A stretch of DNA of 35,921 bases from an uncultured Muribaculaceae bacterium (lineage in GTDB: Bacteria > Bacillota_I > Bacilli_A > RF39 > UBA660). Of this stretch, positions 1,876 to 23,733 are shown in pieces. The notes below the pieces were generated by a model, which was given only the letters and a program-made list of their open reading frames with translations, had not been told where the DNA came from and did no database searches. The position numbers were made by a program, and so were the translations under genes. The stretch spans positions 18,034-53,954 of the forward strand of contig CAYJEP010000001.1 in the NCBI GenBank assembly GCA_964369555.1, written 5' to 3'. Within the stretch, counting starts at the first letter, position 1. The number at the start of each line of letters is the position of its first letter.

Positions 1876-3231
1876 CTACTCCTTTACGTTTCTATATTGC
1901 ATTTTATATTCATATTTTATTTTTTCTACATCTAGTATATCGCTTAAACTTCTCACATCATATTTAAGCTCATGAAAAGCTTCAAACAATTCTTCCTCTG
2001 TTACATATCCAGGTGTGATGGTTACCCATTCAGAGAATGTTGGATTGTCTGTATTTTCTTCTATACGATAGTATTTGTATACAGTACTTTTTGTTACTTC
2101 ATCTTTTAAAGCACCTGAAACAGGTTGTTCCGTATAATAGGTGTTTTCATTAGATGATGTTGTGGATTTACTAGGATAATAACTCTTATAAGTTTCTTTA
2201 TTGTACCATTGCCAAGTTTTATCAGTATAATTATAACCTTTTTTATTTTCACAAGTTATTTCTTGAAAACCAATGTCAGTTGGACAAGCACTTGTACTCC
2301 AATCAGTATACTCTTGACAAACTGTTCCCTCTGGAACTCCACCAGAATCTATACTATTACATACATGAATCACACCTCTGTAAATATAAAAATCATCTGT
2401 TCTATCATAACATGGAACTTCGCTTACAATTACTTCTACAACACCAGTTGCACCACAAGCGTATGCTTTTTTAGCTGTAGTTTGATATCTATACATATTA
2501 ACTTCTTCAATTGTTCTATAACTAGCTGATGCTGGTTTAGTTTCTGAAAAATTAGTTACTGAAGATTGACTTCCTTGATATGCATACCCAGCCGGTTGTA
2601 CTGAAACATATTGACCATTATTATAATAAACATTTTTTGTTTCATTTGTATACCACTTATAACCAGTTGATTCATCTTCCGTATAAGTATATCCTTCTTC
2701 AGGCGATGAAACATAATACTCATCTACTTCATTTATATCAGTTTCATCAGCTGGATAATAATACTTAGTCCCTTCGTTTAATTCAAAACCTTGGAATAAA
2801 AATCTAACATCTGATTCGCCTTCTATTAAATCATCCCCATCAGTCCATTCATCAAATTCTGTTGTTTCATCTTCACAAGATAAAATAGGTGTATAGTGAT
2901 AACTTCCATTGTCTAAATAACACACTTTTACCAACGTATCTTCATCACACGAACTATAAGCTGATTCTAATAATAAACCTTCTTCAACCAATTCGTTAGC
3001 AGTTACACTAACACATTCTCCAACATTTTCTGGTAATCTAGATGTATCTTCTGCATAATACTCCTTACCAGCTTCTAGCAAATCATCCTTTAAAGAACCA
3101 TTACCACAAAATCTTAGCAATAGTAAAATTACTACCACTATAACCACAATAAAAATCACACTTAAAAATAATTTTAACCATGGAAACTCTTTTTTTTCTA
3201 CTTCATATTCATAATCATCATAATTATCCAT
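1876..3231 (-). CDS. Hypothetical single-pass membrane protein with a Cys/Tyr-rich ectodomain (451 aa)
   Basis: ORF track; SD AGAGGTGG 5 nt before the ATG. An acidic N-terminus (MDNYDDYEYE) is followed by the TM segment LFLSVIFIVVIVVVILLLL. The roughly 400-aa region after it has 10 Cys and is very Tyr/Thr/Glu-rich. Its stop TAG is 6 nt from the start of the next gene. Confidence 0.75.
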   Translation of the reverse strand: MDNYDDYEYEVEKKEFPWLKLFLSVIFIVVIVVVILLLLRFCGNGSLKDDLLEAGKEYYAEDTSRLPENVGECVSVTANELVEEGLLLESAYSSCDEDTLVKVCYLDNGSYHYTPILSCEDETTEFDEWTDGDDLIEGESDVRFLFQGFELNEGTKYYYPADETDINEVDEYYVSSPEEGYTYTEDESTGYKWYTNETKNVYYNNGQYVSVQPAGYAYQGSQSSVTNFSETKPASASYRTIEEVNMYRYQTTAKKAYACGATGVVEVIVSEVPCYDRTDDFYIYRGVIHVCNSIDSGGVPEGTVCQEYTDWSTSACPTDIGFQEITCENKKGYNYTDKTWQWYNKETYKSYYPSKSTTSSNENTYYTEQPVSGALKDEVTKSTVYKYYRIEENTDNPTFSEWVTITPGYVTEEELFEAFHELKYDVRSLSDILDVEKIKYEYKMQYRNVKE

Positions 3232-3315: not shown

Positions 3316-4378
3316 CTTCTAATATAACTTCAATATTAATGATTTTCCCATCGCGCTCTACTTCAAAAGTAATCTTATCGCCTATTTGATACTGGTATAA
3401 TTTATATTTTAAATGAGTTCCATCTACAATTTCAACACCATCTATTTTTAATATAACATCCTTATATTGTAATCCATAAGTTTCTGCTACAGAGCCTCTT
3501 TCTACACTAACAACCACAACTCCATTACTATAAATTTTATCTAATACAATTTTATTATAGTTAAGAGCATAATCATCGTTCGCATCAACGAAACTCACTC
3601 CTAGATAAGGTCTTTCTATAGCTTCACCTTCTTCTAATCTATCTATCACTGAAGTAGCCATTTCAATTGGAATAGCAAACCCCATACCTTCAATATCATC
3701 TTCTACAAGTTTTAAAGTATTAATACCAATTACTTCACCATTAATATTAACTAATGGCCCACCACTATTACCAGGATTTATAGCAGTATTAGTTTGTAAA
3801 ACATCCATTAAAAACGAACCACCATCACTAGATTCAACTTCAACTTGTCTATCTAAACCAGATATAATTCCTTTAGTAACAGTACCTCTATACTCTAAAG
3901 AAATTGGAGTTCCAACTGCAAATACAGTATCACCTATCTCAACTGCTGTACTATCGCCAAAACTAACCAATAATGGAACATATTCGCGACTAACCCTTAA
4001 AACAGCTAAATCTATCATTTCATCACTACCCATTAATGTAGCCTCAAATTTCTCACCATCATTATTTGAAACTTCTATTTTTCTTGAATCTTCAATAACA
4101 TGGTGGTTAGTAAGTAAATATGCATAATCATCATCGTATTTATAAGCAAATGCTGTTCCGATACTATCATAATTATAACCACTTGATTCAACTGTAAATA
4201 CAGCATCATAAACTTTATCAATTGATTCTGAGATAGTCTCATTTTCAGTTATATTAACATTGGTATTAACAGTTTCAGTTTCTTCTTCATTTATAACCTC
4301 ATAAAAATAAATAGTTCCATTTATCCCTACAAACAAACTAATTATTGTTACTAATATATGCGAAATTATATTTTTCAT
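3305..4378 (-). CDS. htrA: S1C (HtrA/DegP-like) serine protease with N-terminal TM anchor and C-terminal PDZ domain
   Basis: Catalytic triad contexts TNHHVI (His), DLAVLRV (Asp) and GNSGGPLVN (Ser). The C-terminal roughly 90 aa are PDZ-like, and an N-terminal hydrophobic anchor is present. I place the start at ATG 4378 (AAAGGAG SD 10 nt upstream) rather than the ORF-track GTG 4387, which sits 1 nt after the SD. Confidence 0.85.
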   Translation of the reverse strand: MKNIISHILVTIISLFVGINGTIYFYEVINEEETETVNTNVNITENETISESIDKVYDAVFTVESSGYNYDSIGTAFAYKYDDDYAYLLTNHHVIEDSRKIEVSNNDGEKFEATLMGSDEMIDLAVLRVSREYVPLLVSFGDSTAVEIGDTVFAVGTPISLEYRGTVTKGIISGLDRQVEVESSDGGSFLMDVLQTNTAINPGNSGGPLVNINGEVIGINTLKLVEDDIEGMGFAIPIEMATSVIDRLEEGEAIERPYLGVSFVDANDDYALNYNKIVLDKIYSNGVVVVSVERGSVAETYGLQYKDVILKIDGVEIVDGTHLKYKLYQYQIGDKITFEVERDGKIINIEVILEDSI

Positions 4379-5312
4379 CTTTATCACTCTCCTTTAACTC
4401 TCTAAAATTAGATGGTAAACCTAATTTCATTAAAATATCCTCAGTACTAACACTACTAATTTTATTTTCTAAATATTCTATTTCATACGAAAATTCGTTT
4501 AATAACTCTGTAAACAATCTATCCCACAACATAGACTTAAAAATAATCATAATAGCAAATATATCATTCTTGCCATATGAATATTCATCATTAACTCTCA
4601 TGATATCTAATCTTTTATGAGTTTCATTATCAGGAATTGACCTTTGAGTTCTATGATCATATAAAATATCTTCATGCGCACATAAATTTCTATAGTTAGA
4701 TAATATTTCTAAATAAATATCTAACTCCTCAGGTGTTAATTTATAAATATCTGCTATATTAATTTGATCTTCTATCTTTAAAATGGAATAAAGTTCTGAA
4801 ATTATTCCAAAAGATAAAACCTTTATAGAAACCCATAATGGAATATAACCATAACGCATAACATAATGCTTAGTCGCTCTGTGTTGTTTTGAATTTAAAC
4901 GAATTTGCCTCTTCATTTTATTAATAACATCACTAACATGATTTATTTTAAAAGATTCATTTCTAAAATTTTTAAAATTCAAATATTCTTTTTCTTTATA
5001 ACCATATTTTTTAGACAAGAAATAACTTATAACTGATTTCATGTTATTTTCTATTATTAAAATATACTTAAACATAATATTTCTTATTTTTCTATCAAAC
5101 CAAAAAATAGCATACAACTCACCAAAAGTCGCACCTTCAACAAATTTCTCATCACTACTGTTTTTCATCAGTAAATGCCTATAACCATTAACAAAAAAAT
5201 AATTCTCTTTTAATAAAATTTCTCTAGCCCAATCTTTATCATTGATAACTAGACCCCTAGCCTCTAAAATTGCAATTTGTTCATCAAGATTTTTAAACGT
5301 TTTATTTTTCAT
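4338..5312 (-). CDS. Abi_2 family (AbiD/AbiF-like) abortive-infection protein
   Basis: The N-terminal signature LDEQIAILEARGLVINDKDWAREILLKENYFFVNGYRHLL matches my recollection of the Abi_2 pattern (QI..L..RGL.I.D......L....YY...GY). Size is 324 aa; SD GGTGAG. The 3' end overlaps the htrA-like start by 41 nt. Confidence 0.7.
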   Translation of the reverse strand: MKNKTFKNLDEQIAILEARGLVINDKDWAREILLKENYFFVNGYRHLLMKNSSDEKFVEGATFGELYAIFWFDRKIRNIMFKYILIIENNMKSVISYFLSKKYGYKEKEYLNFKNFRNESFKINHVSDVINKMKRQIRLNSKQHRATKHYVMRYGYIPLWVSIKVLSFGIISELYSILKIEDQINIADIYKLTPEELDIYLEILSNYRNLCAHEDILYDHRTQRSIPDNETHKRLDIMRVNDEYSYGKNDIFAIMIIFKSMLWDRLFTELLNEFSYEIEYLENKISSVSTEDILMKLGLPSNFRELKESDKDEKYNFAYISNNN

Positions 5313-5383: not shown

Positions 5384-5403
5384 AAAAAACCACATTACTG
5401 TGG
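5384..5403 (-). terminator. Rho-independent terminator ending the Tad-like operon
   Basis: Minus strand reads TAA-G-CCACA-GTAA-TGTGG-TTTTTT immediately after the stop of the 173-aa gene. Confidence 0.6.
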
Positions 5404-5404
5404 C

Positions 5405-5926
5405 TTAAGTACAAGTGTTATCCGTTGTAAACTTGTATATACGATTAGTTTTAGTAAAAACAGGAAAATCTACTAGCTCTATTAATGGCAAATTTATATT
5501 CATATAAGTTAAGACCCCAAATTGATAATATTTAGTACAAACAGGCTGTCCTTCTGTATCAGTTTTCTCAATGGCATCTTGATCTAAATAAATACAATAT
5601 CTATGCGAACGTTCAATTTCAAGTTCTACTAAAGGCATTCCATCATAATGACTTGGACACTTTTCATTTTCGGTTGCACCACGATATCCAATACTTGTTA
5701 AATAAACTTGTATTTCTTCGTATGAACTATCCAAAATATTACCATTTGAACCTTTAGTATCATCCTTATAATTAAAACCTTCATATTTTTCAATAGAATA
5801 AACAATCCTATTATTTACCTTAAAAGCTTTATAATAACTTATGGTAGCCGCCAAAAAGGCAAAAACTATAAATATGAATAAAATAATAAAATTAAACATA
5901 AATGTATGCCCTATTGGTGATTTCAT
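5405..5926 (-). CDS. Hypothetical N-terminally anchored secreted protein, last gene of the Tad-like operon (TadE/pseudopilin-like by position and architecture only)
   Basis: ORF track; SD AGGAGAGG. The N-terminus MKSPIGHTFMFNFIILFIFIVFAFLAATISYY is a short polar leader followed by a hydrophobic helix. The ectodomain has 4 Cys. No family motif recognised. Confidence 0.65.
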   Translation of the reverse strand: MKSPIGHTFMFNFIILFIFIVFAFLAATISYYKAFKVNNRIVYSIEKYEGFNYKDDTKGSNGNILDSSYEEIQVYLTSIGYRGATENEKCPSHYDGMPLVELEIERSHRYCIYLDQDAIEKTDTEGQPVCTKYYQFGVLTYMNINLPLIELVDFPVFTKTNRIYKFTTDNTCT

Positions 5927-5949
5927 TAGTTACCTCTCCTATTCAAAAA

Positions 5950-6171
5950 TTAAGACCATTCCCCATCTTTGTAAGTGCTGTAAGTAGTATTATCATTAAC
6001 TATACATGAGTTTTTATCATCTGACAAATATCCACCTAAACTACCACACGCACCTTCTTTTTGAACATTTTCCATTGCTCCAGTTACTAAAGGTATAGCA
6101 ATAGCCGCAATTACCCCGATTAAGATAATTGTGATTACTGTCATATTTGCTTCTCCAGCTGCTTCTTTCAT
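5950..6171 (-). CDS. Flp-like small pilin candidate (73 aa), non-canonical
   Basis: Strong SD GAAGGAGG. The N-terminus MKEAAGEANMTVITIILIGVIAAIAIPLVTGA is a short charged leader ending in Gly, then a roughly 25-aa hydrophobic helix. A short C-terminal part has 2 Cys. The gene sits directly after the tadC-like gene and has its own promoter. Confidence 0.6.
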   Translation of the reverse strand: MKEAAGEANMTVITIILIGVIAAIAIPLVTGAMENVQKEGACGSLGGYLSDDKNSCIVNDNTTYSTYKDGEWS

Positions 6172-6200
6172 TTTACATTCCTCCTTCTATTTTCAATATT

Positions 6201-6230
6201 AGTATAACACATTTGAAATATTCTAGTCAA
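6201..6230 (-). promoter_or_regulatory. Internal sigma-A-type promoter in front of the pilin gene (TTGACT-18 nt-TGtTATACT)
   Basis: Minus strand: -35 TTGACT (6230-6225), 18-nt spacer, TG-extended -10 TATACT (6206-6201), about 30 nt upstream of the pilin ATG. Confidence 0.5.
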
Positions 6231-6233
6231 CTT

Positions 6234-7016
6234 TTAATAATTCATCATCATCATCATTGAGAATAACATAATCATCATTACTCCCCCACCAGTGGCAAAT
6301 AACATAATCATTGTCTTTCTTTCCATAGTTTCTAAACGCTCTGTATACTTTTGTTCTCTTGCTTTATTTTGTAAATTTGATACAGTTCTTGAAAACATCA
6401 ATAACTGCTCTTGTTTTTTTTCTTGGCTACCCAAACTTAGACGATATAATAATCTCATCATACGCATAGAATCTCTAACAGGATAAGTTCTTGCAAATTC
6501 CATATAAGGATCAACAGTCATATCCCCAGCTTCAATTCTAGCAACTAAAGCTCTTAAACCTGATTGAAATACATCAGGAGCATCCTCAATTGATCTAGAT
6601 AAAGCAACAGGGACTGTATAATGTTGTACTAAAATCTCTAAACTCTTTAAATAATAAGGTAGTAATAAATTAATTCTGTGCATATTCCTTTTATAATAAG
6701 ATCTTAAATTAGAATAACCTTGTTTAAATAAGAAAAATCCTACAATTATAGATAATAAGAAATACATGAATTGCATATCAGATATGAAAAAAATAAATAC
6801 CGCTACCATACCAATAAGTCCATCACGAACCCTCTTACCATACATTTTTTGAACATCTATATCCTCACCATAGCGAAGTTTTAATAAAAATTCATAGTCT
6901 TTTTCTTTAAGAAATCCAAACACAGGTTGAACATCTTTTATAAATTTTGACGGTTCGAAAAGCTTATTGTATATAACTAAAAATATAAGGATTGCTGCTA
7001 CTATAAAAAATACCAT
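6234..7016 (-). CDS. TadC-like (T2SS-F family) inner-membrane platform protein
   Basis: Topology is an N-terminal TM, a TM pair, a helical cytoplasmic domain and a C-terminal TM. The segment LRALVARIEAGDMTVDPYMEFA resembles the T2SS-F repeat. The start overlaps the upstream stop (TAATG). Assignment rests on position and topology; no HMM was run. Confidence 0.65.
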   Translation of the reverse strand: MVFFIVAAILIFLVIYNKLFEPSKFIKDVQPVFGFLKEKDYEFLLKLRYGEDIDVQKMYGKRVRDGLIGMVAVFIFFISDMQFMYFLLSIIVGFFLFKQGYSNLRSYYKRNMHRINLLLPYYLKSLEILVQHYTVPVALSRSIEDAPDVFQSGLRALVARIEAGDMTVDPYMEFARTYPVRDSMRMMRLLYRLSLGSQEKKQEQLLMFSRTVSNLQNKAREQKYTERLETMERKTMIMLFATGGGVMMIMLFSMMMMMNY

Positions 7017-7918
7017 TATTCCGCCCCCACATTCTCATTATAAAATTTCTCACCGTTTAATATAAAGTATGTATTCATTATAACTATACCGTGTAACATA
7101 AGTTGAATATACCATAATTTCAACATTTCTAAATACGTTTCAGTACCTAATAAAAACTGAACTAACATAATCATAAAATATAGTATTAAACCAAATTGAA
7201 TGAATTTTCTATGAAACACAGCTCTATCCATTCTATCTCGGTAAACACCCTCAACTAACATATCGATATCAAGAGACATATTTTCTAAAGAACCTGATGC
7301 ATCTCTCGCACCCTCATTAGTTATTTGTAAAAATATTTGATGCATATTTTTAACAATATAATAATCATATTTTTCGTTCATAAAAGTGATAGCCTCATTG
7401 ATTGTCCCATTTTTATAAGACATATCAATCATTGTTTTAATATCACTTAATAATGGTTCCTCTAATACTCCAGATTCATAAACACCCTCTAAAGACTTAA
7501 CAAAAGCTTGAGTAGTAGCAAATTCCATTATTGTATTTGTAGTATACACTTGAATTTGTTCAAATATAAATTCACTGTATAATCTTTTACATCTCAAATA
7601 AGATAAATACGGAATAATAGACACTGCTAATAATCCATACACAATACTCCAAACAATACTATAAAAATATAAATACGAAACTATAGCAGCGCCTAATGAA
7701 AACGCTAATATTTGAATCCCATATTGCCTAGGAGTGTACTCTTGACCCAACTCTTTTACTTTTTCTCTAACAACTTTAAAAGAGAACGGTGCATACTTTT
7801 CATATATCATTGCTGACTGAGAAGTAATATATTTATATACATTATCGCCTTTATAATTTCTATAAACAATTATAAATAATAAAATTACTGTGACTATTAT
7901 AAATATAAATGTTGTCAT
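7016..7918 (-). CDS. TadB-like (T2SS-F family) inner-membrane platform protein
   Basis: Same architecture as the TadC-like protein. The segment KNGTINEAITFMNEKY resembles the G.s..eAl motif. SD AGGAGGG; immediately downstream of the ATPase gene. Confidence 0.65.
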   Translation of the reverse strand: MTTFIFIIVTVILLFIIVYRNYKGDNVYKYITSQSAMIYEKYAPFSFKVVREKVKELGQEYTPRQYGIQILAFSLGAAIVSYLYFYSIVWSIVYGLLAVSIIPYLSYLRCKRLYSEFIFEQIQVYTTNTIMEFATTQAFVKSLEGVYESGVLEEPLLSDIKTMIDMSYKNGTINEAITFMNEKYDYYIVKNMHQIFLQITNEGARDASGSLENMSLDIDMLVEGVYRDRMDRAVFHRKFIQFGLILYFMIMLVQFLLGTETYLEMLKLWYIQLMLHGIVIMNTYFILNGEKFYNENVGAE

Positions 7919-7926
7919 TTGCCCTC

Positions 7927-9009
7927 CTATCCTTTACTTGCTGTTTCTTCTAATTCCGGTCTGAAAAATCCTTCAGGTAAACTTACACCTTGTCCTGACA
8001 TATATTCAATTAAATATCTACTAGGATTTTTTCTTACAACAGCACCTGTTGTAGCTTTTTTATAAATTGTATTACTAAGTGCCTCATTATCTTCAGTAAC
8101 AAAGAACTCAGTAACCTCTCCAATTTCCCTAATAAATCTTTTTGTCACAGGATCTTGATAACCTCTAACAAAAACACCTAGTTGAACATATCTATAAATT
8201 GATTTTAAGAACTGATCAATTTCTTGATTAGTTTCTAATAAACTATACATACGATTAGGAATTGAAGCAGCTTTATCAGCATGAATTGTTGATAAAATAT
8301 AATGTCCAGATGAAATTGAGTTACGAACTGCCATTACTGCTTCCGCACTACGAACCTCTGAAAGTAATATCCATTTAGGATTTTGACGCATACAAGCAAC
8401 TAATACATCAGAATATGAAACAACATTATTAGTTTTCATTGCTACAATATCACGATGTGGATATATTTTATCTAAATGAAGCTCTAATGTATCTTCAATA
8501 GTGATTAGTTTTTCATTTTCTTTAGTTTTAGAAGCTAAATACTTAACAAACTCAGTTTTACCTGAACCAGTCTCACCACACACAATAATATTACAATGCG
8601 CTAAAACAGCTTGTACTAAGAAATCATGGATTTCTAAAGTTATATATTTTTCAGATAAAATTTTGTTTTTTTCTAATCTTATTTTAGCAGGTGTTTTTCT
8701 TATAACACAAGAAATCCCATTAGTAGCTACAGAGTCATGAATAAAATTCATACGAAGTTCAGCACTCTCTGAATCTAGTAGAGGATGTGCTGAATTAAAA
8801 CTTTTTCCCATTACATTTGAACATTGAAAAGCTAGCTTTTCCATCATAGCATTATTAACATTAGGATTTTCAACTCTAAAAATTCCTCTTGATAAAGTTT
8901 TTAACCATAACTGTCCACCATTACTATAAGAAATATCAGTAACATCATCAACAACTAAATACTCTTTTAAAGGACCAAAATCAATTTGTGAAAATAAATT
9001 TTCTTGCAT
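7927..9009 (-). CDS. cpaF: TadA/CpaF-type secretion ATPase (T2SS-E/VirB11 superfamily)
   Basis: Walker A GETGSGKTE, Asp-box-like ITIEDTLEL, Walker B-like WILLSEVR and His-box STIHA. Size is 360 aa. The start overlaps the upstream stop (TAATG). Confidence 0.85.
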   Translation of the reverse strand: MQENLFSQIDFGPLKEYLVVDDVTDISYSNGGQLWLKTLSRGIFRVENPNVNNAMMEKLAFQCSNVMGKSFNSAHPLLDSESAELRMNFIHDSVATNGISCVIRKTPAKIRLEKNKILSEKYITLEIHDFLVQAVLAHCNIIVCGETGSGKTEFVKYLASKTKENEKLITIEDTLELHLDKIYPHRDIVAMKTNNVVSYSDVLVACMRQNPKWILLSEVRSAEAVMAVRNSISSGHYILSTIHADKAASIPNRMYSLLETNQEIDQFLKSIYRYVQLGVFVRGYQDPVTKRFIREIGEVTEFFVTEDNEALSNTIYKKATTGAVVRKNPSRYLIEYMSGQGVSLPEGFFRPELEETASKG

Positions 9010-9827
9010 TATTCAGTCTCATCTTCTTCTGTTTCATCTTCTGGAACATCAGGGTTTTCTTCACTTAAAGTAACAGTATTAGCATTGATAAATTCTACTA
9101 GTTCAGTTCTACCAATAACTAAATCACCTTCTGGCGGAGTTCCACCAATTGGCACTGGAAATAATTCAACTCCTAAAGAACGTAAATATTCACTCTTTTT
9201 AAGTAAAATGAATGTTTCTTCATCAACAGCAATCAAGAATGAATCTGGATTTCTATCTTCATCAGTATTTTCAAATACATCATTACCACTACTATCTTTA
9301 ACAGCTAAAATTTCAACATTACCTAATAATTTACCAATCATTACTTTTCCAATTTCGTCATTAGCTTTCATGTAAATATCAATTATATCACCAGGTTTTA
9401 ATGAATTTCCATAAGTTGAATCTAATGTAACAGCTAACGAATAAGGTCTTTCACCTTGCTCTAATTCAGCAAATTCTGAACCAGGTATTTCACTTTCATC
9501 AATTATTGTATCAGAGTAAAACATACTTCCTGCAGGTATAACAGTATTAATATTACTATAACTACCTATTAAAGCACTACTATTTCTAATTACATTACTA
9601 GTAACTGCAACGCTAGGAACCTCAATAAATTCTATCATCTCAGCAGTAATCAATTGTCTTGGTTGGATTGTTTCTGTTGCAACAGGAATTCTAATTGGTT
9701 CTACTTGACTATTAATTGTAGAAGTATATCCCCAAAATAATACCCCTATAATAACTAAAACTCCTATAACTGTAACTGTGTTTTTGTTTGTAAAAAATTT
9801 TTTTAATGAAACCATTATATTATTCAT
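9009..9827 (-). CDS. CpaB/RcpC-like SAF-domain pilus assembly protein
   Basis: An N-terminal TM (VTVIGVLVIIGVLFWGY) is followed by a SAF-like segment IPVATETIQPRQLITAEMIEFIEVP. The C-terminal tail is acidic (PEDETEEDETE). The gene sits directly upstream of the ATPase, as in Tad loci. Confidence 0.6.
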   Translation of the reverse strand: MNNIMVSLKKFFTNKNTVTVIGVLVIIGVLFWGYTSTINSQVEPIRIPVATETIQPRQLITAEMIEFIEVPSVAVTSNVIRNSSALIGSYSNINTVIPAGSMFYSDTIIDESEIPGSEFAELEQGERPYSLAVTLDSTYGNSLKPGDIIDIYMKANDEIGKVMIGKLLGNVEILAVKDSSGNDVFENTDEDRNPDSFLIAVDEETFILLKKSEYLRSLGVELFPVPIGGTPPEGDLVIGRTELVEFINANTVTLSEENPDVPEDETEEDETE

Positions 9828-9844
9828 AAAATCTCCCTTTCCTT

Positions 9845-10246
9845 CTAATATGGCGTTTCTAATATCGCATCTAATTGATTAGATATTTCAAATTCAAGTA
9901 TATCACCTGTAATTGATGTATTTTCAGTACTACTTACTTTAACACTCACCTTAGGTGGATATTCATTAACATCATAAATATCTATCTTGTAAGTTTGTGA
10001 TAATAAAGAACTCTCTGCAAATCTTCTTAAAAAATTCTCAACGAATTTTTCACGATCGATTCTCACTTCTCCACTTTCTCTATAATAAGCTAAATCAACA
10101 GCATCATACATAGCGCCTTCCGTAGCTTCTTTTAATAAGTGATAATTATGTTCATCAGTATTTGTAACACTTTGAAAAAACATTATAAAAAATATGGAAA
10201 CTATTCCTACTATAGTAATAGCAATTCCCCAAAATGACTCTTTCAA
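9845..10246 (-). CDS. Hypothetical N-terminally anchored small protein (133 aa), pseudopilin/TadE-like by architecture only; TTG start
   Basis: ORF track. The start codon is TTG at 10246 with a strong SD (TAAGGAGGTAAAGA-TTG). The N-terminus is MKESFWGIAITIVGIVSIFFIMFF. Confidence 0.65.
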   Translation of the reverse strand: MKESFWGIAITIVGIVSIFFIMFFQSVTNTDEHNYHLLKEATEGAMYDAVDLAYYRESGEVRIDREKFVENFLRRFAESSLLSQTYKIDIYDVNEYPPKVSVKVSSTENTSITGDILEFEISNQLDAILETPY

Positions 10247-10257
10247 TCTTTACCTCC

Positions 10258-10896
10258 TTAGTTATATATATTATCCCTCTTATTGATTCTATATATTGAA
10301 ATTCCAGCTATCAATATAATTAATAATAAAGGAATATAATAGTAATTTAATAAAAGCTCTAAAGCTAAATCCCAGATACTATCTTCTTCTTCTACCTCTG
10401 GAATAACTATCACATCATCAGGCTCTAGATAATCTTTTATATTTTGTACAAATTCATCATACCTAAGTGTGTGTGTAGACCATCTATTACACAATGAATA
10501 ATTTGGAATTGTTTCACAAAGTGGATCTTTATAATACTCATTGTAAGTAGGTAAATTAACCCAAATAGTAGAAAGTAATTGACCTTCGCAATCACTATTA
10601 TCAGAATAAACCTTAAACCCAACACTAGTATCATCTTGATATCCAGATATAACAATCTCACTCTTACTAAAATAATAAGTTTGGTTAGTCTCTGAATCTA
10701 ATATGTATGTATCAGGAGTTAAATTGGCTAAAGAAATGTTGAAAACAATATTATCATCAGATTCAATATAATCATATCGATAAGTAATATTAGAAGCAAT
10801 TTCACGTAACTCTGCTAATTCTTTATAACTACAAAAACTAGCATTCACTTTACTGTATGGTATTAATAACAAAACTAATAGCAATATCTTTTTCAT
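10258..10896 (-). CDS. Hypothetical type-I membrane protein (signal peptide, 4-Cys ectodomain, C-terminal TM)
   Basis: Signal peptide MKKILLLVLLLIPYSKVNA; C-terminal TM IPLLLIILIAGISIY followed by basic residues; SD AGGAGG. Confidence 0.7.
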   Translation of the reverse strand: MKKILLLVLLLIPYSKVNASFCSYKELAELREIASNITYRYDYIESDDNIVFNISLANLTPDTYILDSETNQTYYFSKSEIVISGYQDDTSVGFKVYSDNSDCEGQLLSTIWVNLPTYNEYYKDPLCETIPNYSLCNRWSTHTLRYDEFVQNIKDYLEPDDVIVIPEVEEEDSIWDLALELLLNYYYIPLLLIILIAGISIYRINKRDNIYN

Positions 10897-10922
10897 ACTT
10901 TCCTCCTTTATTATAGCATAAA

Positions 10923-12479
10923 TTATTTTAAAGTGTAATAATATATTTCATTTTTCACATTAAAGATAAGTTTAATATTAGTTGCATTTTTAATTTCATC
11001 AATAACTTCTACATATATAGAACCATTAATTGAATTAAGTAAAGTAAAATCACTAAACTCTTTTACTACACCATCAATTGTATATTCAATAACACCAAAA
11101 TTTTCTATAAAATTAAATAAATTGTAAGTTTTTTGGATAGTCATTTCTTCGTATTCAAAAGTTCCATCTATTCTGATAACTACTTCGTCATAGTTTCTAT
11201 TAGGTTTTGGATATATATATTTAATAAAACTATAACACTCATCTATACAATCTTCATAAGGAATCTTGAAATAATCTTCTATTTGATATGAATCTATTTT
11301 AATATCATAATCTTTTATATAATAATTCAAAATATTAATTTCCTCACCAAGATTTTTAGCAACAACTAGTTCACTTTCAAAAACTTTCAAGTATTCTATT
11401 TCAACTAATAAATTATTAGATTTAGAAGGATTAATTTTATTTGTAAATTTGAAAGTGATATCTCTATCTACTAATTCCTTAGGAATTTCATATACCAATA
11501 CTCTATTTTCATACTCAACTATATCAGTTTCATTTTTATAAATTTCTCCAAATTCAATAATTTTGTCATTGTAATTTGTAGTAGGAGTATAACTATAACT
11601 ACCTATAGAAATTAAAGCCGTAGCTATATCTAAATTTCCACGCAAATTAACATCTAAGATTAGATAATAATAATCTTCATTTATTATTCTACCTTCATAA
11701 TCATCTTTAATTAAATAAGCATTTTCAATTTTTAAAGAAACACCATTTAGCGCAAAATACTCATTCATTTTAAATTCTTTATTAGGAGTAATTAAAAAAC
11801 TTAAAGAAACACCAATAATTACTAAAAGTGTAATTGAAATAAGCAAAATACTAAACAACTTGTTTTCTTGATATGCATACTTCATTTTTCTTAGAAAATA
11901 ATTAAACTTTCTTTTAGATACATTTGTATCTAATTTTAAATCTACTTCAAACTCTTCCCTATCAGCCTCACTAATATTAAGTTGATTTAAATCATCACCA
12001 AATCCAAACTTCTTAATATCAAACCCGACTGACCTAACAAATAAAACCACAGTAGATACAACATTTACCCAAAAAGCAATGAATAAAAAATCCCTAATCA
12101 ATCTAACAGTTCTTATATCTAAAATTTGTTCTGATAGTGTTACTAAATTTATATTGACAATTTGTAACATAACAAATAAGAAAATAAGAGAAGATAAGGT
12201 AAAAATATAAAACATAATAGGCTTTTTCTTAAATAGTAATACAAATAAAATAATTCCTAAAACCAACATAGATACTATAGGTAACCATAATACCACGCCA
12301 TACATTAAAGTACCTTGTAAATCTTGACCAATAACACCAACTACAGTACTAGTATAGTCGTTATAAAAACTCAAAATTATATTTGTTCTATAAAGTAAGT
12401 AAAGGGAAATCAAAGTTAATATAATATGAAAGACACGGAAAAATTTAATAAAAAATGCATACGGCTTTCTTAAAATCAT
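10923..12479 (-). CDS. Hypothetical polytopic membrane protein with a large beta-rich C-terminal ectodomain (518 aa); first gene of the Tad-like operon
   Basis: ORF track; SD GGGAGGG. About 4-5 N-terminal TM helices are followed by a charged loop and another TM (LFSILLISITLLVIIGVSLSF). A roughly 290-aa Y/I/E/N-rich domain follows. No family recognised with confidence. Confidence 0.75.
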   Translation of the reverse strand: MILRKPYAFFIKFFRVFHIILTLISLYLLYRTNIILSFYNDYTSTVVGVIGQDLQGTLMYGVVLWLPIVSMLVLGIILFVLLFKKKPIMFYIFTLSSLIFLFVMLQIVNINLVTLSEQILDIRTVRLIRDFLFIAFWVNVVSTVVLFVRSVGFDIKKFGFGDDLNQLNISEADREEFEVDLKLDTNVSKRKFNYFLRKMKYAYQENKLFSILLISITLLVIIGVSLSFLITPNKEFKMNEYFALNGVSLKIENAYLIKDDYEGRIINEDYYYLILDVNLRGNLDIATALISIGSYSYTPTTNYNDKIIEFGEIYKNETDIVEYENRVLVYEIPKELVDRDITFKFTNKINPSKSNNLLVEIEYLKVFESELVVAKNLGEEINILNYYIKDYDIKIDSYQIEDYFKIPYEDCIDECYSFIKYIYPKPNRNYDEVVIRIDGTFEYEEMTIQKTYNLFNFIENFGVIEYTIDGVVKEFSDFTLLNSINGSIYVEVIDEIKNATNIKLIFNVKNEIYYYTLK

Positions 12480-12507
12480 AATCTACCCTCCCTATATTCT
12501 ATAAATA

Positions 12508-12536
12508 ATTATACAATATTTTGTTTATTTATACAA
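12508..12536 (-). promoter_or_regulatory. Sigma-A-type promoter of the Tad-like operon (TTGTAT-17 nt-TATAAT)
   Basis: Minus strand: -35 TTGTAT (12536-12531), 17-nt spacer, -10 TATAAT (12513-12508), 29 nt upstream of ATG 12479. Confidence 0.5.
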
Positions 12537-12555
12537 TCCTTCAAAAAAAAATATT

Positions 12556-13914
12556 TTAGGAACTCCAAAATATTTTATTAAATTTATATAATTCATATAT
12601 GTCAAACTTACTAACAACCTCATAAGGAGAGTGCATGGATAAAATAACAACTCCACAATCAACTACTTCAACACCCTTATTTGCTAAAACATAAGCTATA
12701 GTACCCCCGCCACCAACATCTGATTTACCAAGTTTGGAAAATTGATATTTAATATTATTATTCTCTAGTAGTCCTCTAATAAAACCTAAGTATTCAGCAT
12801 TCGCATCACTACCATTACTTTTCCCAAATGAACCTGTATATTTAGTAAAAGCTACTCCATAACTTAATAAACCAGTGTTGTTTTTTTCAAAAACAGAATC
12901 AAAATTAGGATCATAGGCAGCTTCAACATCACTGGATAACATTTTTGAATTATAAAATATTTTATCTATTAAATTGATTTTATTTATATTCATTTTATTT
13001 AAAATTTCTGAAATAAAAAAATTAAAAATATTTGATTCCATTCCTGTATTACCCACACTACCAACTTCCTCTTTATCAGATAAAATACAAACAGCAGTTT
13101 TTTTTAAATTAGTAACATCTATTAAAGAAGCAATCGATGCATAAGCACACACCCTATCATCTTGACCATATCCAGCTATCATGCTTTCATCTAATCCTAA
13201 ACTTCTAGTTTCAAATGATGGTATTAATTCAAGTTCCGCACTGTTAAAGTCTTGCTCTTTAATACCATATTTTTTATTTAATATTTTTAAAACATTCAAT
13301 TTAATACTTTCATCTTTGATGTTACCAACAATTACATTTAAATGCTCACCTTCGATACCTTCTTTTAAAGTTTTAGACATTTGGTCTTTAGCTAAATGTG
13401 GCAATAAATCACTAATAGTAAAAATAGGATCTTCCTTATCATCTCCAATACTAACATCTATTAAAGAACCATCAGCTTTAACTATAACACCTTCTAAACA
13501 TAAAGGAATAGTAGTCCATTGATATTTCTTTATCCCACCGTAGTAATCTGTTTTAAAATAAGCAAATCCACCATCCTCATAAAGAGGATTTGATTTTAAA
13601 TCAAGTCTTGGAGAATCAATATGTGACCCAATAATATTTAGTCCTTCTTCTATATTTTCGCCAATAATAGCTATATATAAACACTTACCTTTATTATTAA
13701 AATATACCCTATCCCCAACACTTACTTTATCTAATTTTTCTAAATCAACAAAATTGTTTTCTATTAATAATTCGATAGTATTGTTAACGAATTTTCTTTC
13801 TGTTTTAGATTTATTTAAAAACTTCATATATTTATCTGCATAATCATTAATTTTACTAACTTCAGTATTATTTATAAAACCAGATTCTTTTTTTATTTCT
13901 AATTCATCTTTCAT
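12556..13914 (-). CDS. M18-family aminopeptidase
   Basis: GSHIDSPRLDLK motif, 452 aa, overall M18 (aspartyl/aminopeptidase 1) layout from memory. Confidence 0.8.
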   Translation of the reverse strand: MKDELEIKKESGFINNTEVSKINDYADKYMKFLNKSKTERKFVNNTIELLIENNFVDLEKLDKVSVGDRVYFNNKGKCLYIAIIGENIEEGLNIIGSHIDSPRLDLKSNPLYEDGGFAYFKTDYYGGIKKYQWTTIPLCLEGVIVKADGSLIDVSIGDDKEDPIFTISDLLPHLAKDQMSKTLKEGIEGEHLNVIVGNIKDESIKLNVLKILNKKYGIKEQDFNSAELELIPSFETRSLGLDESMIAGYGQDDRVCAYASIASLIDVTNLKKTAVCILSDKEEVGSVGNTGMESNIFNFFISEILNKMNINKINLIDKIFYNSKMLSSDVEAAYDPNFDSVFEKNNTGLLSYGVAFTKYTGSFGKSNGSDANAEYLGFIRGLLENNNIKYQFSKLGKSDVGGGGTIAYVLANKGVEVVDCGVVILSMHSPYEVVSKFDIYELYKFNKIFWSS

Positions 13915-13957
13915 ATAATCACCTTAATTTATTTTGTGTTTAATTATATGTTTTATA

Positions 13958-13982
13958 CTAAAAAACTGACCATTAGGTCAGT
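13958..13982 (-). terminator. Rho-independent terminator after prmC
   Basis: Minus strand reads ACTGACC-TAAT-GGTCAGT-TTTTT. The first arm and loop contain the last codons and the TAA stop. Confidence 0.6.
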
Positions 13983-14671
13983 ATAAATACATATCTATCT
14001 TTATTAGATAAATCTTTTTTGATTATAACTTCACAATCAAAATATTTTAAAGCCATATTTTTAATATCAGAAGCTTGTTTATAACCAATTTCAAAAGCTA
14101 TTATCCCATTTTTTTTCAAATGATTTTTAGCTGTTTTAATTATTTCATAATAGCAATATAAACCATTGTCTAAAGCATATAAAGCTAAATGAGGTTCATT
14201 ATTTTTAACAATATCTTCTATCTCTTCATCATATGAAATATAAGGAGGATTACTAATAATACAATCATATTGTTTATTTAAATTAGTTAGTAAATCACTT
14301 TTAATAAAATTCACTGAAACATTATTTAATAAAGCATTTTCTTTTGCTACTTCTAAAGCTTCTTCTGATATATCCACAGCATCAACTTCACAATTTAATA
14401 ATTTCTTTAAAGTTATAGCAATGCACCCAGAACCAGTTCCAACATCTACAACACTTAAATTATCCTTATTCTTTAATAATTTAACAGTTTCTTCTACTAA
14501 ACCCTCTGTTTCAAATCTTGGAATTAATACATTTTTATTTACTTTAAAAATATTCCCATAAAAATCAACTTCACCAACTATATATTGAACTGGAACTCCT
14601 TGATTAAATAATTTAATTCCTTCTTCTAAATCACTATCTTTTAAATATTTTTTCAAATAATCTAAAGACAT
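13973..14671 (-). CDS. prmC: Release-factor glutamine N5-methyltransferase PrmC/HemK (short, 232 aa)
   Basis: NPPY catalytic motif and SAM-binding VVDVGTGSGCI. TAATG overlap with the prfA stop, as in many Firmicutes. Confidence 0.85.
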   Translation of the reverse strand: MSLDYLKKYLKDSDLEEGIKLFNQGVPVQYIVGEVDFYGNIFKVNKNVLIPRFETEGLVEETVKLLKNKDNLSVVDVGTGSGCIAITLKKLLNCEVDAVDISEEALEVAKENALLNNVSVNFIKSDLLTNLNKQYDCIISNPPYISYDEEIEDIVKNNEPHLALYALDNGLYCYYEIIKTAKNHLKKNGIIAFEIGYKQASDIKNMALKYFDCEVIIKKDLSNKDRYVFILT

Positions 14672-15726
14672 TACTCACCACGTAATTTTCGATTTTGATC
14701 TTCTGTAATTAAAGCTTCGATAACTTTATCGATATCACCTTGCATAACTCTATCTAATGTATTTAAAGTAAATCCAATCCTGTGATCTGTTACCCTATTT
14801 TGTGGATAATTATATGTTCTTATTTTTTCAGATCTATCACCAGTACCAATTTTATTTCTTCTTTCAGCACCTAATTCTTTTTCTTGTTCTTGAATTTTTA
14901 AATCATATAATCTTGCTTGCAATATTTTAATAGCTTTATCTTTATTTTTAATTTGACTACGTTCTGATTGTGAATAAACTACAAGCCCTGTTGGAATATG
15001 AGTAAGTCTAACAGCTGAATCCGTTGTATTAACTCCTTGACCACCACAACCACTACTTCTAGTAACGTCAATTCTAACTTCATTCATATCAAGATCCGTT
15101 TCTACCGCTTCAGCTTCAGGCATAACTAAAACTGTTGCTGTAGAAGTATGAACTCTACCTTGTGTTTCAGTATTTGGAACCCTTTGAACTCTATGAGCAC
15201 CAGATTCATATTTCATTTTAGAATAAACATTTTCTCCTCTAATAATCGCACTTATTAAAGTAAATCCACCAGCTTCAGATTTTTCTTCGTCCATAATTTC
15301 TAATTTAAAACCTTCACGTTCACAATATCTTTTATACATATCGAATAAATCACCAGCAAAAATATTAGCTTCATCTCCACCAGCTGCACCTCTAATTTCA
15401 ATGATAATATCTTTACCATCATTAGGATCTTTTGGTAGTAATAAAATTTCTATTTCACTCTCAAGAATAGTTTTTCTTTCCTCTAATTCTAGTAATTCCT
15501 CTTTAGCAAATTCTGCCATTTCTGGATCTTTACTCATTTCTTTAGCAGCTTCAATATCACTTACTATACTTTTATATTCTTGATATTTATCGTAAGAATC
15601 TTTTAAAGATGATTGTTCCTTAGATAAAGCTAAAGTTTTTTTAATATCTGATAAAGTTTCAGGTTTGATTAACTCTTCTGTTAATTCATTATATTTAGCT
15701 TCAATAGCCGTTAATCTCTCTATCAA
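14671..15726 (-). CDS. prfA: Peptide chain release factor 1
   Basis: GGQ motif ([10 protein letters not shown]) and RF1-type [18 protein letters not shown] place the start at TTG 15726 (GGAGGG SD 6 nt upstream). The ORF-track ATG 15747 has no SD, and the SD would fall inside that extension. Confidence 0.9.
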
Positions 15727-18340: not shown

Positions 18341-18739
18341 ATGAAGATAGAATACACTGATTTATTAGAAATTGAAGTTTTAAAAAAACAAAACGTAAAT
18401 ACACTTTTATTTATCATTACTTTATTAGTTTCTCTTTACTTAACATATAATGAACAGTTGCGTTTAGCAAAAAAAACCACAATTACTTCATTAAAATTTG
18501 ATCAAGCTGCTAATTTATTAAATAGAATTGTTGGGGTATTAATACTAATTAGTATTGTTTATGTATCTTATTTAGATTATAAAGTAGCCAAAATAAAAAA
18601 TGATGAAATTTCTTTATTTGAAAAAGAAATTATTGCCTCTATTCTAAACTTAGCTTCTGGCGTGATTATTTTATTAGTAGTTATTGAAGCTTTAAAAAGT
18701 GATAGTGAAACTGTTTCTTTAGAAAATCCTATTACTTAA
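18341..18739 (+). CDS. Hypothetical small membrane protein (132 aa, about 3 TM)
   Basis: ORF track only. Three hydrophobic spans, no SD, convergent 8-nt overlap with the next gene. Coding status uncertain. Confidence 0.45.
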   Translation: MKIEYTDLLEIEVLKKQNVNTLLFIITLLVSLYLTYNEQLRLAKKTTITSLKFDQAANLLNRIVGVLILISIVYVSYLDYKVAKIKNDEISLFEKEIIASILNLASGVIILLVVIEALKSDSETVSLENPIT

Positions 18740-19571
18740 GTCTAAATCTATAAGAAACATTATATAAAATTATTATAAATATTCCAGTAAAAGCAAATAC
18801 AACTCCCAGTACAAACCAATTGGTTAATAGATTAGTTATTAAAGGCGATAATAAATCTGTTGGCCCATTTAATTGTTCCATTATAATTTGATTTAACACC
18901 ACTTCTGAAGAACCTAATAAGACATATATAGTGCCACAAGCAAGTAAAGATATACCAATAAATTTAAGTGGTTTATATAGACTCTTATTTATAATTATAA
19001 ATAGTAAAATTATAACTGTAATACATATATAAAATACAAAATTATCATAATCAATTGTCAGTTCCCAATACTCTAGTAACTGTACGTTTCCAATTATATT
19101 AATATGTTCAGGCAATAAGGAAAGTACCTCATTATAAAATTGGTCAATATAAAAACTCAATTCCTCATTACTCATTGTGATATTCAAATGACTTTCACTA
19201 GACTCTAGCGCAACACTGTTTAATTTATTCAAGATTAAATCGTCATCTATATTTATTTCTGAATCATGAATTCTATCACTAAATATAGTTGCTAATATTT
19301 CATTAATTTCATCACTGTTCATAATATCTTCAACAATTAAATCAGGTACACCTTTTTGTAAAGCCACCTTGCTTAATTTATTTTTCAAAGTTATATTTTC
19401 ATCAGTCATTAAAATATAACTAGCATTTACATTTAAAATATCTCCATCTTCAATATAAGATGTTAAGTTTTTTTCTGTTATCAGATTTTTATTAGTTATT
19501 GAAAAAAATAACATTAAAAAAACTAAGATTAAACTTATACTAAGAATTATATTAGTTATTATTCTTATCAT
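18732..19571 (-). CDS. Hypothetical membrane protein (279 aa) downstream of spo0A
   Basis: ORF track; N-terminal TM, soluble middle domain, 3-4 C-terminal TMs; SD AGGAAGTG. Confidence 0.6.
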   Translation of the reverse strand: MIRIITNIILSISLILVFLMLFFSITNKNLITEKNLTSYIEDGDILNVNASYILMTDENITLKNKLSKVALQKGVPDLIVEDIMNSDEINEILATIFSDRIHDSEINIDDDLILNKLNSVALESSESHLNITMSNEELSFYIDQFYNEVLSLLPEHINIIGNVQLLEYWELTIDYDNFVFYICITVIILLFIIINKSLYKPLKFIGISLLACGTIYVLLGSSEVVLNQIIMEQLNGPTDLLSPLITNLLTNWFVLGVVFAFTGIFIIILYNVSYRFRLK

Positions 19572-23710: not shown

Positions 23711-23733
23711 CACTTTTAATTTAGTGTCTTTTT
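23709..23733. terminator. Bidirectional rho-independent terminator between the XRE gene and mbl
   Basis: GACACT-(8-nt loop)-AGTGTC, flanked by A7 upstream and T5 downstream. Confidence 0.6.

Follow-up and report, generated by a model that had tools for sequence, protein, structure and literature searches.

A candidate Tad-related type IV filament operon with a non-canonical parts list in the chromosome of a gut Bacillus, and its relationship to gene modules of Gram-positive plasmids

Tad/Flp (type IVc) pili are exemplified by the tad locus of Aggregatibacter and the cpa locus of Caulobacter, with monoderm versions in Bifidobacterium breve and Clostridia, whereas VirB11, the corresponding ATPase of VirB/D4 type IV secretion systems (T4SS), acts without T2SSF platforms, CpaB or small pilins. 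The subject of this study is an operon of nine genes, running on the minus strand from 12479 down to 5405, in a 35,921-nt stretch of contig CAYJEP010000001.1 (assembly GCA_964369555.1, positions 18,034-53,954 of the forward strand), the whole of which is hereafter termed the window. We consider this operon, with a probability of roughly 0.6, to belong to a Gram-positive branch of the Tad/VirB11-type type IV filament machines, of which it would be a copy standing alone in the chromosome.

The literature touches this family without explaining it, so that the system is partly anticipated. Divergent ‘no-Flp’ tad-like loci of Clostridia and a tad-like operon of B. anthracis have already been reported (PMC3244431), and a computational study, which gave no mechanism, predicted a ‘secretion-related’ operon of 8-9 genes in Roseburia, Ruminococcus and Eubacterium (Miller et al., Nat Commun 2022, PMC9523054). 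The latter shares with the window a CpaF-type ATPase, a PilC/GspF-like membrane protein, DUF5411, the number of genes, a gut Firmicute host and otherwise unannotated products, but is found in Clostridia and includes an internalin-like protein; the two are likened by description, not by sequence. In the pLS20-family literature, genes 36 and 38-41 are listed as ‘unknown’ and gene 37 as a ‘putative VirB11’ (PMC8557374). The initial annotation of the window, made from the letters alone, had called the operon possibly undescribed, which stands insofar as it is not a canonical Tad locus, but not insofar as DUF5411/CpaF/PilC operons had been predicted and pLS20 genes 36-41 catalogued. No paper on DUF4320, a family encountered below, and none describing Tad-like modules in Gram-positive conjugation was found in the literature searched; papers on pELF and on lactococcal conjugation added nothing of use.

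Nine intact open reading frames (ORFs) were recovered, exactly at the positions and with the sizes given in the initial annotation, with a promoter at one end and a terminator at the other. The features are as follows, all on the minus strand.

12508-12536, minus strand: operon promoter TTGTAT-17-TATAAT, read from the sequence, with the -35/-10 pair and leader kept in 12 of 14 related species
10923-12479, minus strand: gene 1, 518 amino acids, polytopic membrane protein, lineage-specific (ORF; AlphaFold2 model)
10258-10896, minus strand: gene 2, 212 amino acids, signal peptide, four-Cys ectodomain and C-terminal transmembrane (TM) anchor (ORF; conserved Cys)
9845-10246, minus strand: gene 3, 133 amino acids, DUF5411 protein (Pfam DUF5411, E 1.2e-53)
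9009-9827, minus strand: gene 4, 272 amino acids, CpaB/RcpC-type protein (Pfam RcpC, 33.3 bits)
7927-9009, minus strand: gene 5, 360 amino acids, secretion ATPase of the Gram-positive ‘CpaF/VirB11 family’ clade (Pfam T2SSE, 101 bits; neighbour-joining tree)
7016-7918, minus strand: gene 6, 300 amino acids, platform protein, remote TadB/TadC (T2SSF) homologue (hhalign; BLASTP)
6234-7016, minus strand: gene 7, 260 amino acids, second platform protein, paralogue of gene 6 (hhalign; BLASTP)
6201-6230, minus strand: internal pilin promoter TTGACT-18-TATACT with an upstream TG forming an extended -10 (10 of 12 consensus matches; conserved)
5950-6171, minus strand: gene 8, 73 amino acids, Flp-sized pilin candidate (invariant N-terminus; even Cys count; ribosome-binding site GGAGG)
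5405-5926, minus strand: gene 9, 173 amino acids, minor-pilin-like protein (MK-x-x-IG leader, TM helix, four-Cys domain)
5387-5406, minus strand: intrinsic terminator, hairpin AAGCCACA-GTAA-TGTGGTTT followed by TTTGTT (sequence scan)

In common with Tad/Flp pili, the operon encodes one T2SSE ATPase, two single-domain platform paralogues, a CpaB/RcpC protein, a pilin in the range of ~50-70 amino acids and extra pilin-like proteins, all within a single operon. It differs in that its ATPase falls outside the TadA/CpaF clade, its platform proteins fail PF00482 and its pilin has neither the G/XXXXEY motif nor a PF04964 match; TadE (PF07811), TadZ, TadV and a secretin are absent from the window, and genes 1, 2 and the DUF5411 gene are additional. 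As the organism is a monoderm, the absence of a secretin from the operon is expected. The homologies of the individual parts, set out below, support the proposal of the initial annotation that this is a Tad-related type IV filament machine with a non-canonical parts list.

The ATPase encoded by gene 5 carries all four motifs previously claimed for it, GETGSGKTE, ITIEDTLEL, WILLSEVR and STIHA, which correspond to the Walker A, Asp box, Walker B and His box, and it matched Pfam T2SSE (PF00437) at 101 bits against a cutoff of 24.9. Every NCBIfam match was far under its cutoff, the best being VirB11 (TIGR02788; 119 bits, cutoff 250), with lesser scores for the TadA family (TIGR03819; 94 bits, cutoff 373), TrbB (93 bits), ComGA (NF041000; 83 bits, cutoff 300) and FlaI (83 bits). 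A near tie was likewise obtained against PDB structures, with CpaF at 67, VirB11 at 63 and FlaI at 60 bits. In a neighbour-joining tree of 13 sequences, the window ATPase and its gut clade joined the ATPases of Gram-positive plasmids (pLS20 gene 37, pHTbeta, pXO1 and Priestia; 98% bootstrap), apart from TadA/CpaF (monophyletic, 100%) and VirB11 (94.5%). Given its best NCBIfam match and its position in the tree, the earlier designation as a TadA/CpaF-type ATPase does not hold in the strict sense, and the protein is assigned on sequence grounds to the clade of plasmid ATPases that NCBI names ‘CpaF/VirB11 family’, outside both TadA/CpaF and VirB11. A tblastn search of 72,556 plasmids with the ATPase returned Gram-positive plasmids at the top (30-33% identity, E 1e-38 to 2e-48), comprising E. 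faecium plasmids of the pHTbeta type, the pLS20 family of Bacillus, pXO1, pXO2, Listeria plasmids and a plasmid of Priestia koreensis.

The products of genes 6 and 7 had been described as two platform proteins of TadB/TadC topology, and profile comparisons agree with this. When the alignments were widened with plasmid and distant homologues, the gene 6 family matched a four-sequence profile of canonical TadB/TadC from Rhizobium and Ralstonia Tad loci in hhalign with a probability of 95.8% (E 7.7e-9, 245 columns), the gene 7 family matched it with 89.7% (E 1.9e-6), and the two families matched each other with 96.7% (E 4.6e-10), whereas reversed-sequence controls gave 0.3-0.5%. Narrow alignments of gene 6 and gene 7 had matched only in the N-terminal TM helix, the paralogy being seen after widening. 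As these matches stand against controls of below 1%, the two proteins are paralogues and remote homologues of the TadB/TadC (T2SSF-type) platforms, despite failing the curated model. In BLASTP, gene 6 also matched the Priestia plasmid protein annotated ‘T2SS F family’ (E 5e-8), which itself scores 24.2 bits on PF00482 against a cutoff of 25.2, and gene 7 matched the neighbour of that protein (E 4e-12); the platform proteins of pLS20, pHTbeta and pXO1 align with those of the window. A search of 1.84 billion representative proteins with gene 6 found 228 relatives, the full-length distant ones among them without a T2SSF match. The initial annotation had held that clustering of the ATPase with VirB11/T4SS ATPases, together with failure of the two proteins on T2SS-F models, would speak against its interpretation; with no match to PF00482 for either protein, this came about to the letter but not in substance.

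The candidate pilin, gene 8, begins MKEAAGEANMTVITIILIGV, and its family follows the pattern MKEAAGEAN[M/L]TV..I.LI, with residues 1-18 invariant, variability after approximately residue 33 and a short hypervariable C-terminal knob. An even number of Cys residues (2, 4 or 6) was found in 67 of 68 members, and the knob is predicted to be disulfide-bonded. This arrangement of a conserved core with a variable surface is, at the level of sequence, that of pilins. The size and architecture are Flp-like, yet no match to Flp_Fap (PF04964) was found in Pfam, and positions +5 and +6 of its N-terminus (MKEAAG/EANMTV) are occupied by T and V in place of the E+5/Y+6 of Flp; a ComGC-type leader (G/FTLxE) was not found either.

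Two further products resemble the pilin candidate in their N-termini, an MKE..G-type leader followed by a TM helix being common to the three protein classes of genes 8, 9 and 3. In gene 9, the MK-x-x-IG leader and TM helix precede a globular domain of four Cys, with C90 and C111 conserved in the family; relatives carry one or two paralogues. Comparison of the gene 9 family with a DUF4320-like plasmid set gave a weak match (hhalign 56%, E 1e-4), and the two share an IEKYEGYN / IERNGGLT motif. Gene 3 has an MKE-x-x-W-G leader (MKESFWG), one N-terminal TM helix and a small globular domain, and it matched Pfam DUF5411 (PF17424) over its full length (181 bits, E 1.2e-53) and a plasmid DUF5411-like set with an hhalign probability of 95.3%. 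None of the operon proteins matched TadE (PF07811) in Pfam, genes 9 and 3 being comparable to it in leader-plus-TM architecture only. Gene 4 starts with a TM helix, continues with SAF and RcpC domains and ends in an acidic tail; the earlier assignment as a CpaB/SAF-like protein is borne out by a score above the Pfam threshold for RcpC (PF16976; 33.3 bits, cutoff 28.8), by the side of a TIGR03177 CpaB score under its cutoff (42 bits, cutoff 71). It is 26% identical to the SAF protein of the Priestia plasmid (E 5e-22), and a PDB sequence search with its profile returned nothing relevant. The small pilin-like gene with a promoter of its own and the Cys counts of the pilin, the 173- and the 212-amino-acid proteins were all as first described, and the Cys residues are conserved.

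Genes 1, 2, 6, 7, 8 and 9 had no match in Pfam or NCBIfam at E <= 1. The statement that four products (518, 212, 133 and 173 amino acids) match no family is accordingly correct for the first two, incorrect for the 133-amino-acid DUF5411 protein, and to be tempered for the 173-amino-acid protein, which is only weakly DUF4320-like. An AlphaFold2 model of gene 1, built from a diverse alignment of 85 sequences, was confident (predicted local distance difference test, pLDDT, 87.7). In it, four TM helices form a bundle that is joined by a disordered, acidic linker in the cytoplasm to a fifth TM helix, and two Ig-like beta-sandwich domains lie outside the cell. The most conserved residues lie in the linker (D173, E175, E176 and E178, a D-x-EE-x-E motif). 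In Foldseek the best matches of the model were generic Firmicute beta-sandwich proteins, 5bxg (CD630_09570; E 4e-5) and 4r4g (YcdA; E 4e-4), with nothing Tad-like or peptidase-like. Gene 1 was also considered as a cryptic prepilin peptidase, a reading that was rejected, as only D130 is conserved in the TM region and neither a GxGD motif nor a peptidase-like fold match is present. The gene 2 family has four invariant Cys (C22, C103, C127 and C136). Genes 1 and 2 are present in 71 and 70 of 83 species-level loci, respectively, and had no counterpart in the plasmid modules compared; from their sequences they appear to be lineage-specific membrane and ectodomain accessories.

Both the operon and the remainder of the 36-kb window were devoid of a ParA-like protein (TadZ/CpaE) and of any second P-loop protein, which extends to the whole window the earlier observation that none of the nine ORFs is ParA-like or A24-like. 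An A24 prepilin peptidase (TadV/CpaA) was found neither in the window nor in ~160 related gut-Bacilli loci, using phmmer with a Priestia TadV-like protein and the GxGDxK motif. That query is one of two polytopic TadV-like proteins of ~172-181 amino acids observed on the Priestia plasmid and pXO1 (loci L084 4428-4946 and L168 16270-16815). It has an SPGDTK motif and is matched by the pXO1 copy in phmmer (E 5e-8); it has no Pfam match at E <= 0.1, and both copies are annotated ‘hypothetical’. By its sequence the SPGDTK protein looks like a TadV-type aspartic prepilin peptidase. No result supports the suggestion of the initial annotation that the unassigned proteins of the operon replace the missing TadZ and TadV.

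Promoter-like hexamer pairs occur in this AT-rich window at the level expected by chance (56 found against 53.7 expected), hence a consensus match proves nothing by itself and conservation was tested instead. Upstream of gene 1, the -35/-10 pair and the leader AGAATAAAGG are kept in 12 of the 14 related species examined, and an extended -10 (TGTGtTATAaT/TATACT) recurs in the intergenic gap ahead of the pilin gene in 18 of 18. It is because of this conservation across related species that the main and the internal pilin promoters are both credible; TTGTAT-17-TATAAT is present at 12536-12508 as first annotated. The operon promoter is followed by the conserved leader AGAATAtAGGGAGG with a ribosome-binding site, and a strong ribosome-binding site, GGAGG, precedes the pilin gene. 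The 5' leader from the -10 box to the start of gene 1 (12480-12507; TTAGAATAAAGGTGG) was observed to be conserved beyond what a ribosome-binding site alone requires (12 of 14 relatives), and a regulatory role is possible. One-base stop/start overlaps at 9009 and 7016, also noted previously, follow from the ORF coordinates, and the remaining intergenic gaps are of 8-62 nt. The hairpin and T-run terminator was located at 5406-5387, in a window with five terminator-like sites against 1.4 expected.

The closest described relatives outside the gut clade are modules of Gram-positive plasmids. On the Priestia plasmid the gene order is an Ig-like surface protein, DUF5411, SAF protein, ParA-like protein (a weak AAA_31/CbiA match), ATPase, ‘T2SS F family’ protein, second membrane protein and DUF4320, whilst the pXO1 locus comprises DUF4320, CpaB, an AAA ATPase, the ATPase and a membrane protein. 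On pLS20 and pHTbeta, an adhesin, a single-TM protein of 126-140 amino acids, the ATPase, two membrane proteins of ~250-270 amino acids, a 120-amino-acid protein and single-TM proteins of 47-50 amino acids come ahead of a VirB2-like gene, VirD4 and a VirB6-like gene. Genes 3, 5, 6 and 7 of the window are equivalent to pLS20 genes 36, 37, 38 and 39, and gene 9 weakly to gene 40; the small TM proteins of the plasmids resemble gene 8 in architecture only. The window and the plasmid modules have in common the ATPase clade and the order DUF5411, ATPase and two platforms, with a tentatively DUF4320-like protein and a small single-TM protein as possible further members of that order; with pXO1 and Priestia the window also shares the SAF/CpaB protein. 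They differ in that ATPase identity is ~30%, the pLS20 and pHTbeta copies lie within conjugation operons, and those of pXO1 and Priestia include genes for a ParA-like ATPase and a TadV-like peptidase. Neither these parts nor any T4SS linkage is present in the window copy, which is chromosomal and has genes 1 and 2 in addition.

Close relatives of the ATPase number in the thousands in gut metagenomes, and at least 524 species-representative genomes carry its gene; these are labelled as uncultured Bacilli, ‘Tenericutes’, Acholeplasma sp. CAG:878 or Candidatus (Ca.) Faecisoma. The gene order, which the initial annotation had proposed to compare with that of related genomes, is conserved, the nine families being collinear in the 83 species-level loci wherever the contig allows (loci are designated by L numbers throughout). 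Identity to the window across species was highest for the ATPase (gene 5, 75-87%), with 61-84% for platform gene 6, 52-75% for platform gene 7, 51-77% for DUF5411 gene 3, 39-64% for CpaB gene 4, 41-77% for pilin gene 8 and 24-51% for the accessories and minor pilin (genes 1, 2 and 9). The operon is flanked by housekeeping genes, namely those for an M18 aminopeptidase, PrmC and RF1 upstream, and by those for an Abi_2 protein and HtrA downstream, and its G+C content is the same as that of the flanks. The RF1-PrmC flank is common to the closest relatives L004-L006, and L005 also has the Abi_2-HtrA flank. The ATPase is 85% identical to that of the closest relative, and RF1 84% in the same genome pair; these similar identities and the shared flanks indicate that the operon has been inherited vertically under a constraint comparable to that on a translation factor, and is not a recent insertion.

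Several relatives carry additional genes. Between genes 2 and 3, many loci contain two insertions (together at L024 4378-8721), a lipoprotein-like gene of 158 amino acids, with full-length homologues in three loci, and a gene of ~1,284 amino acids, which has tblastn matches, often partial, in 49 of 83 loci and no family match, and which may encode a giant surface protein of the system. In L004, an 798-amino-acid polytopic membrane protein (12489-14885) directly follows the pilin gene in the place of gene 9; by eye it could be a YfhO-type glycosyltransferase, with glycosylation of the pilin as a possibility. After gene 9, approximately 63 of the 83 loci continue with a second gene 9 paralogue, a well-conserved 333-amino-acid protein and a two-TM VirB2-like protein of ~119 amino acids. 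The 333-amino-acid protein was tried as a TadZ and rejected at the level of detectable homology (hhalign ~1%); a PDB sequence search with it returned nothing relevant, and its N-terminal region is receiver-like by eye only. A preprint proposing VirB2-like pili for Gram-positive T4SS (10.64898/2025.12.18.695078) concerns the 119-amino-acid genes of these relatives, not the module of the window.

Further downstream, relatives encode two VirB6/TrbL-like proteins, a PrgI/VirB3-like protein, a 594-amino-acid VirB4-type ATPase (P-loop_TraG 47 bits, AAA_10 45 bits) and, in L089, an M23 wall hydrolase; the whole extension, the 333-amino-acid protein included, lies at L024 14206-20922 and L089 10001-20633. 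Amongst 41 metagenome loci with at least 8 kb of downstream sequence, the VirB4-type gene was found in 35 and the VirB6-like gene in 38; a first metagenome scan, queried with the VirB6-like protein, had found no relative. Weak matches to proteins of Mycoplasma integrative and conjugative elements were observed for this chromosomal super-cluster of Tad-like and T4SS genes.

This linkage raises the principal alternative, in which the module would be an accessory part of a Gram-positive conjugative T4SS and would help either to form mating pairs or to assemble the channel; the T4SS genes would then be situated elsewhere, or the operon would be a remnant after their loss. The closest homologues outside the clade all lie within conjugation operons (pLS20 genes 36-41 and pHTbeta), 35 of 41 related loci run on into VirB6-like, VirB3-like and VirB4-type genes, and the module shares with VirB/D4 systems both the best NCBIfam match of its ATPase, VirB11, and, in relatives, contiguity with such genes and a cell-wall hydrolase gene. 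However, the VirB11 score is far under its cutoff and the tree separates the two ATPases (94.5%). No T4SS gene (VirB4, VirB6 and the like) is present in the window, and an intact module without T4SS genes is kept in several lineages, comprising that of the window, L005, Ca. Faecisoma (L001-3) and CAG:878 (L017/18). The nine ORFs and both promoters are intact and strongly conserved, and the pXO1 and Priestia modules, with CpaB, a ParA-like ATPase and a TadV-like peptidase, constitute a Tad-like locus in their own right. We regard the T4SS accessory as unlikely, though it is the foremost rival to a stand-alone filament machine.

For such a filament machine, the following mode of operation is proposed. 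A hexamer of the gene 5 ATPase would sit on a heterodimeric platform of genes 6 and 7 and would drive the 73-amino-acid pilin from the membrane into a thin filament, which the minor-pilin-like gene 9 product and the DUF5411 protein of gene 3 may prime or cap, and which a ring of the CpaB/RcpC protein of gene 4 would guide through the wall. With its own strong promoter the pilin would be made in excess, and the products of genes 1 and 2 would act as lineage-specific accessories. The filament would presumably serve adhesion or cell-to-cell contact. Plasmids such as pLS20 and pHTbeta, like the majority of the related gut Bacilli, have this module coupled to a conjugation-type T4SS that is absent at the locus of the window.

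A number of results weigh against this interpretation. The signatures of Flp, TadE, TadZ and A24 are all missing from the operon, and the leader of gene 8 is acidic or neutral, as opposed to the basic leader of canonical Flp, which together with the absence of E+5/Y+6 makes its processing by a prepilin peptidase doubtful. Genes 6 and 7 have no PF00482 (T2SSF) match at E <= 1 in Pfam, none of nine detectable distant relatives of gene 6 matched T2SSF, and no relevant structure came up when the PDB was searched by sequence with the gene 6 profile, its widened version or the gene 7 profile. The AlphaFold2 model of gene 6, from a shallow alignment of sequences 76-82% identical, reached a pLDDT of 55 and was too poor for a fold search; the TadB/TadC profile contained four sequences only, and the ATPase tree is small and without archaeal or PilB outgroups. 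A filament has never been seen for any member of the family, an adhesive function is pure conjecture, and the module, being usually linked to a T4SS, may not function by itself.

More tentatively still, the operon could represent a third, monoderm-specific branch of the Tad/VirB11 filament machines, one with a tiny disulfide-bonded pilin and no dedicated A24 peptidase or TadZ, which was ancestrally the contact or retraction pilus of Gram-positive conjugation (pLS20 genes 36-41 and pHTbeta). Were this doubtful proposal true, well-studied Gram-positive plasmids and hundreds of species of gut Bacilli would build an unrecognised type IV-like pilus beside the VirB2-like pilus proposed in the preprint.

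A role in DNA uptake, as a competence pilus, is a distinctly improbable alternative. There is a monoderm precedent in Micrococcus luteus, in which Tad-like Flp pili are reported to be needed for natural transformation (PMC4322843), the module is kept in small gut-bacterial genomes where gene acquisition could matter, and it adjoins DNA-transfer machinery in relatives. On the other hand, no ComEA, ComEC or DprA gene was present in the window or the loci examined, the operon differs from ComG pili in that its ATPase misses the ComGA cutoff (83 bits against 300) and no ComGC-type leader is found, and nothing ties the pilin to DNA binding. Least probable of all is a type II secretion-like pseudopilus that pushes proteins through the wall, for although a language-model classifier called homologous Clostridia DUF5411/CpaF/PilC operons secretion-system genes (PMC9523054) and large surface proteins are encoded inside or beside the module in relatives and plasmids, the window operon holds no candidate substrate, the classifier label does not tell pili from secretion, and a hypervariable, Cys-bonded pilin tip better fits an exposed fibre.

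Other features of the window concern its host and flanking genes. Spo0A (Spo0A_C, 137 bits) and SpoVT are encoded at 19615-20373 and 35127-35657, in what is a low-GC, small-genome, ‘Tenericutes-like’ gut Bacillus; their presence makes a spore-forming host plausible, as had been supposed, and suggests from sequence that the lineage still sporulates. A YutH spore-coat match was observed on a related contig. Directly past the operon terminator lies an Abi_2 (abortive-infection-like) gene (4338-5312), the end of which overlaps the predicted HtrA start by ~50 nt and which is kept at the same place in L005 with 72% identity. MreB is split on the minus strand (23732-24715) into ORFs of 103 amino acids (24404-24715, MreB 2-101) and 200 amino acids (23732-24334, MreB 127-323), with ~25 residues missing between them, which could reflect a frameshift, a pseudogene or an assembly error. 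Four ORFs had no Pfam match at the thresholds used, at 1876-3231 (451 amino acids), 18732-19571 (279), 22266-23324 (352) and 33377-34075 (232), and tRNA and Rfam scans of the window found nothing.

If the operon is read as a filament machine, an entire branch of type IV filament systems goes unrecognised by the curated T2SSF, Flp and TadE models. The operon is carried by uncultured Bacilli with small genomes that are abundant in the guts of humans and animals. Should the module build a pilus, it would add a second type of filament to Gram-positive conjugation and provide a new target at which transfer may be blocked.

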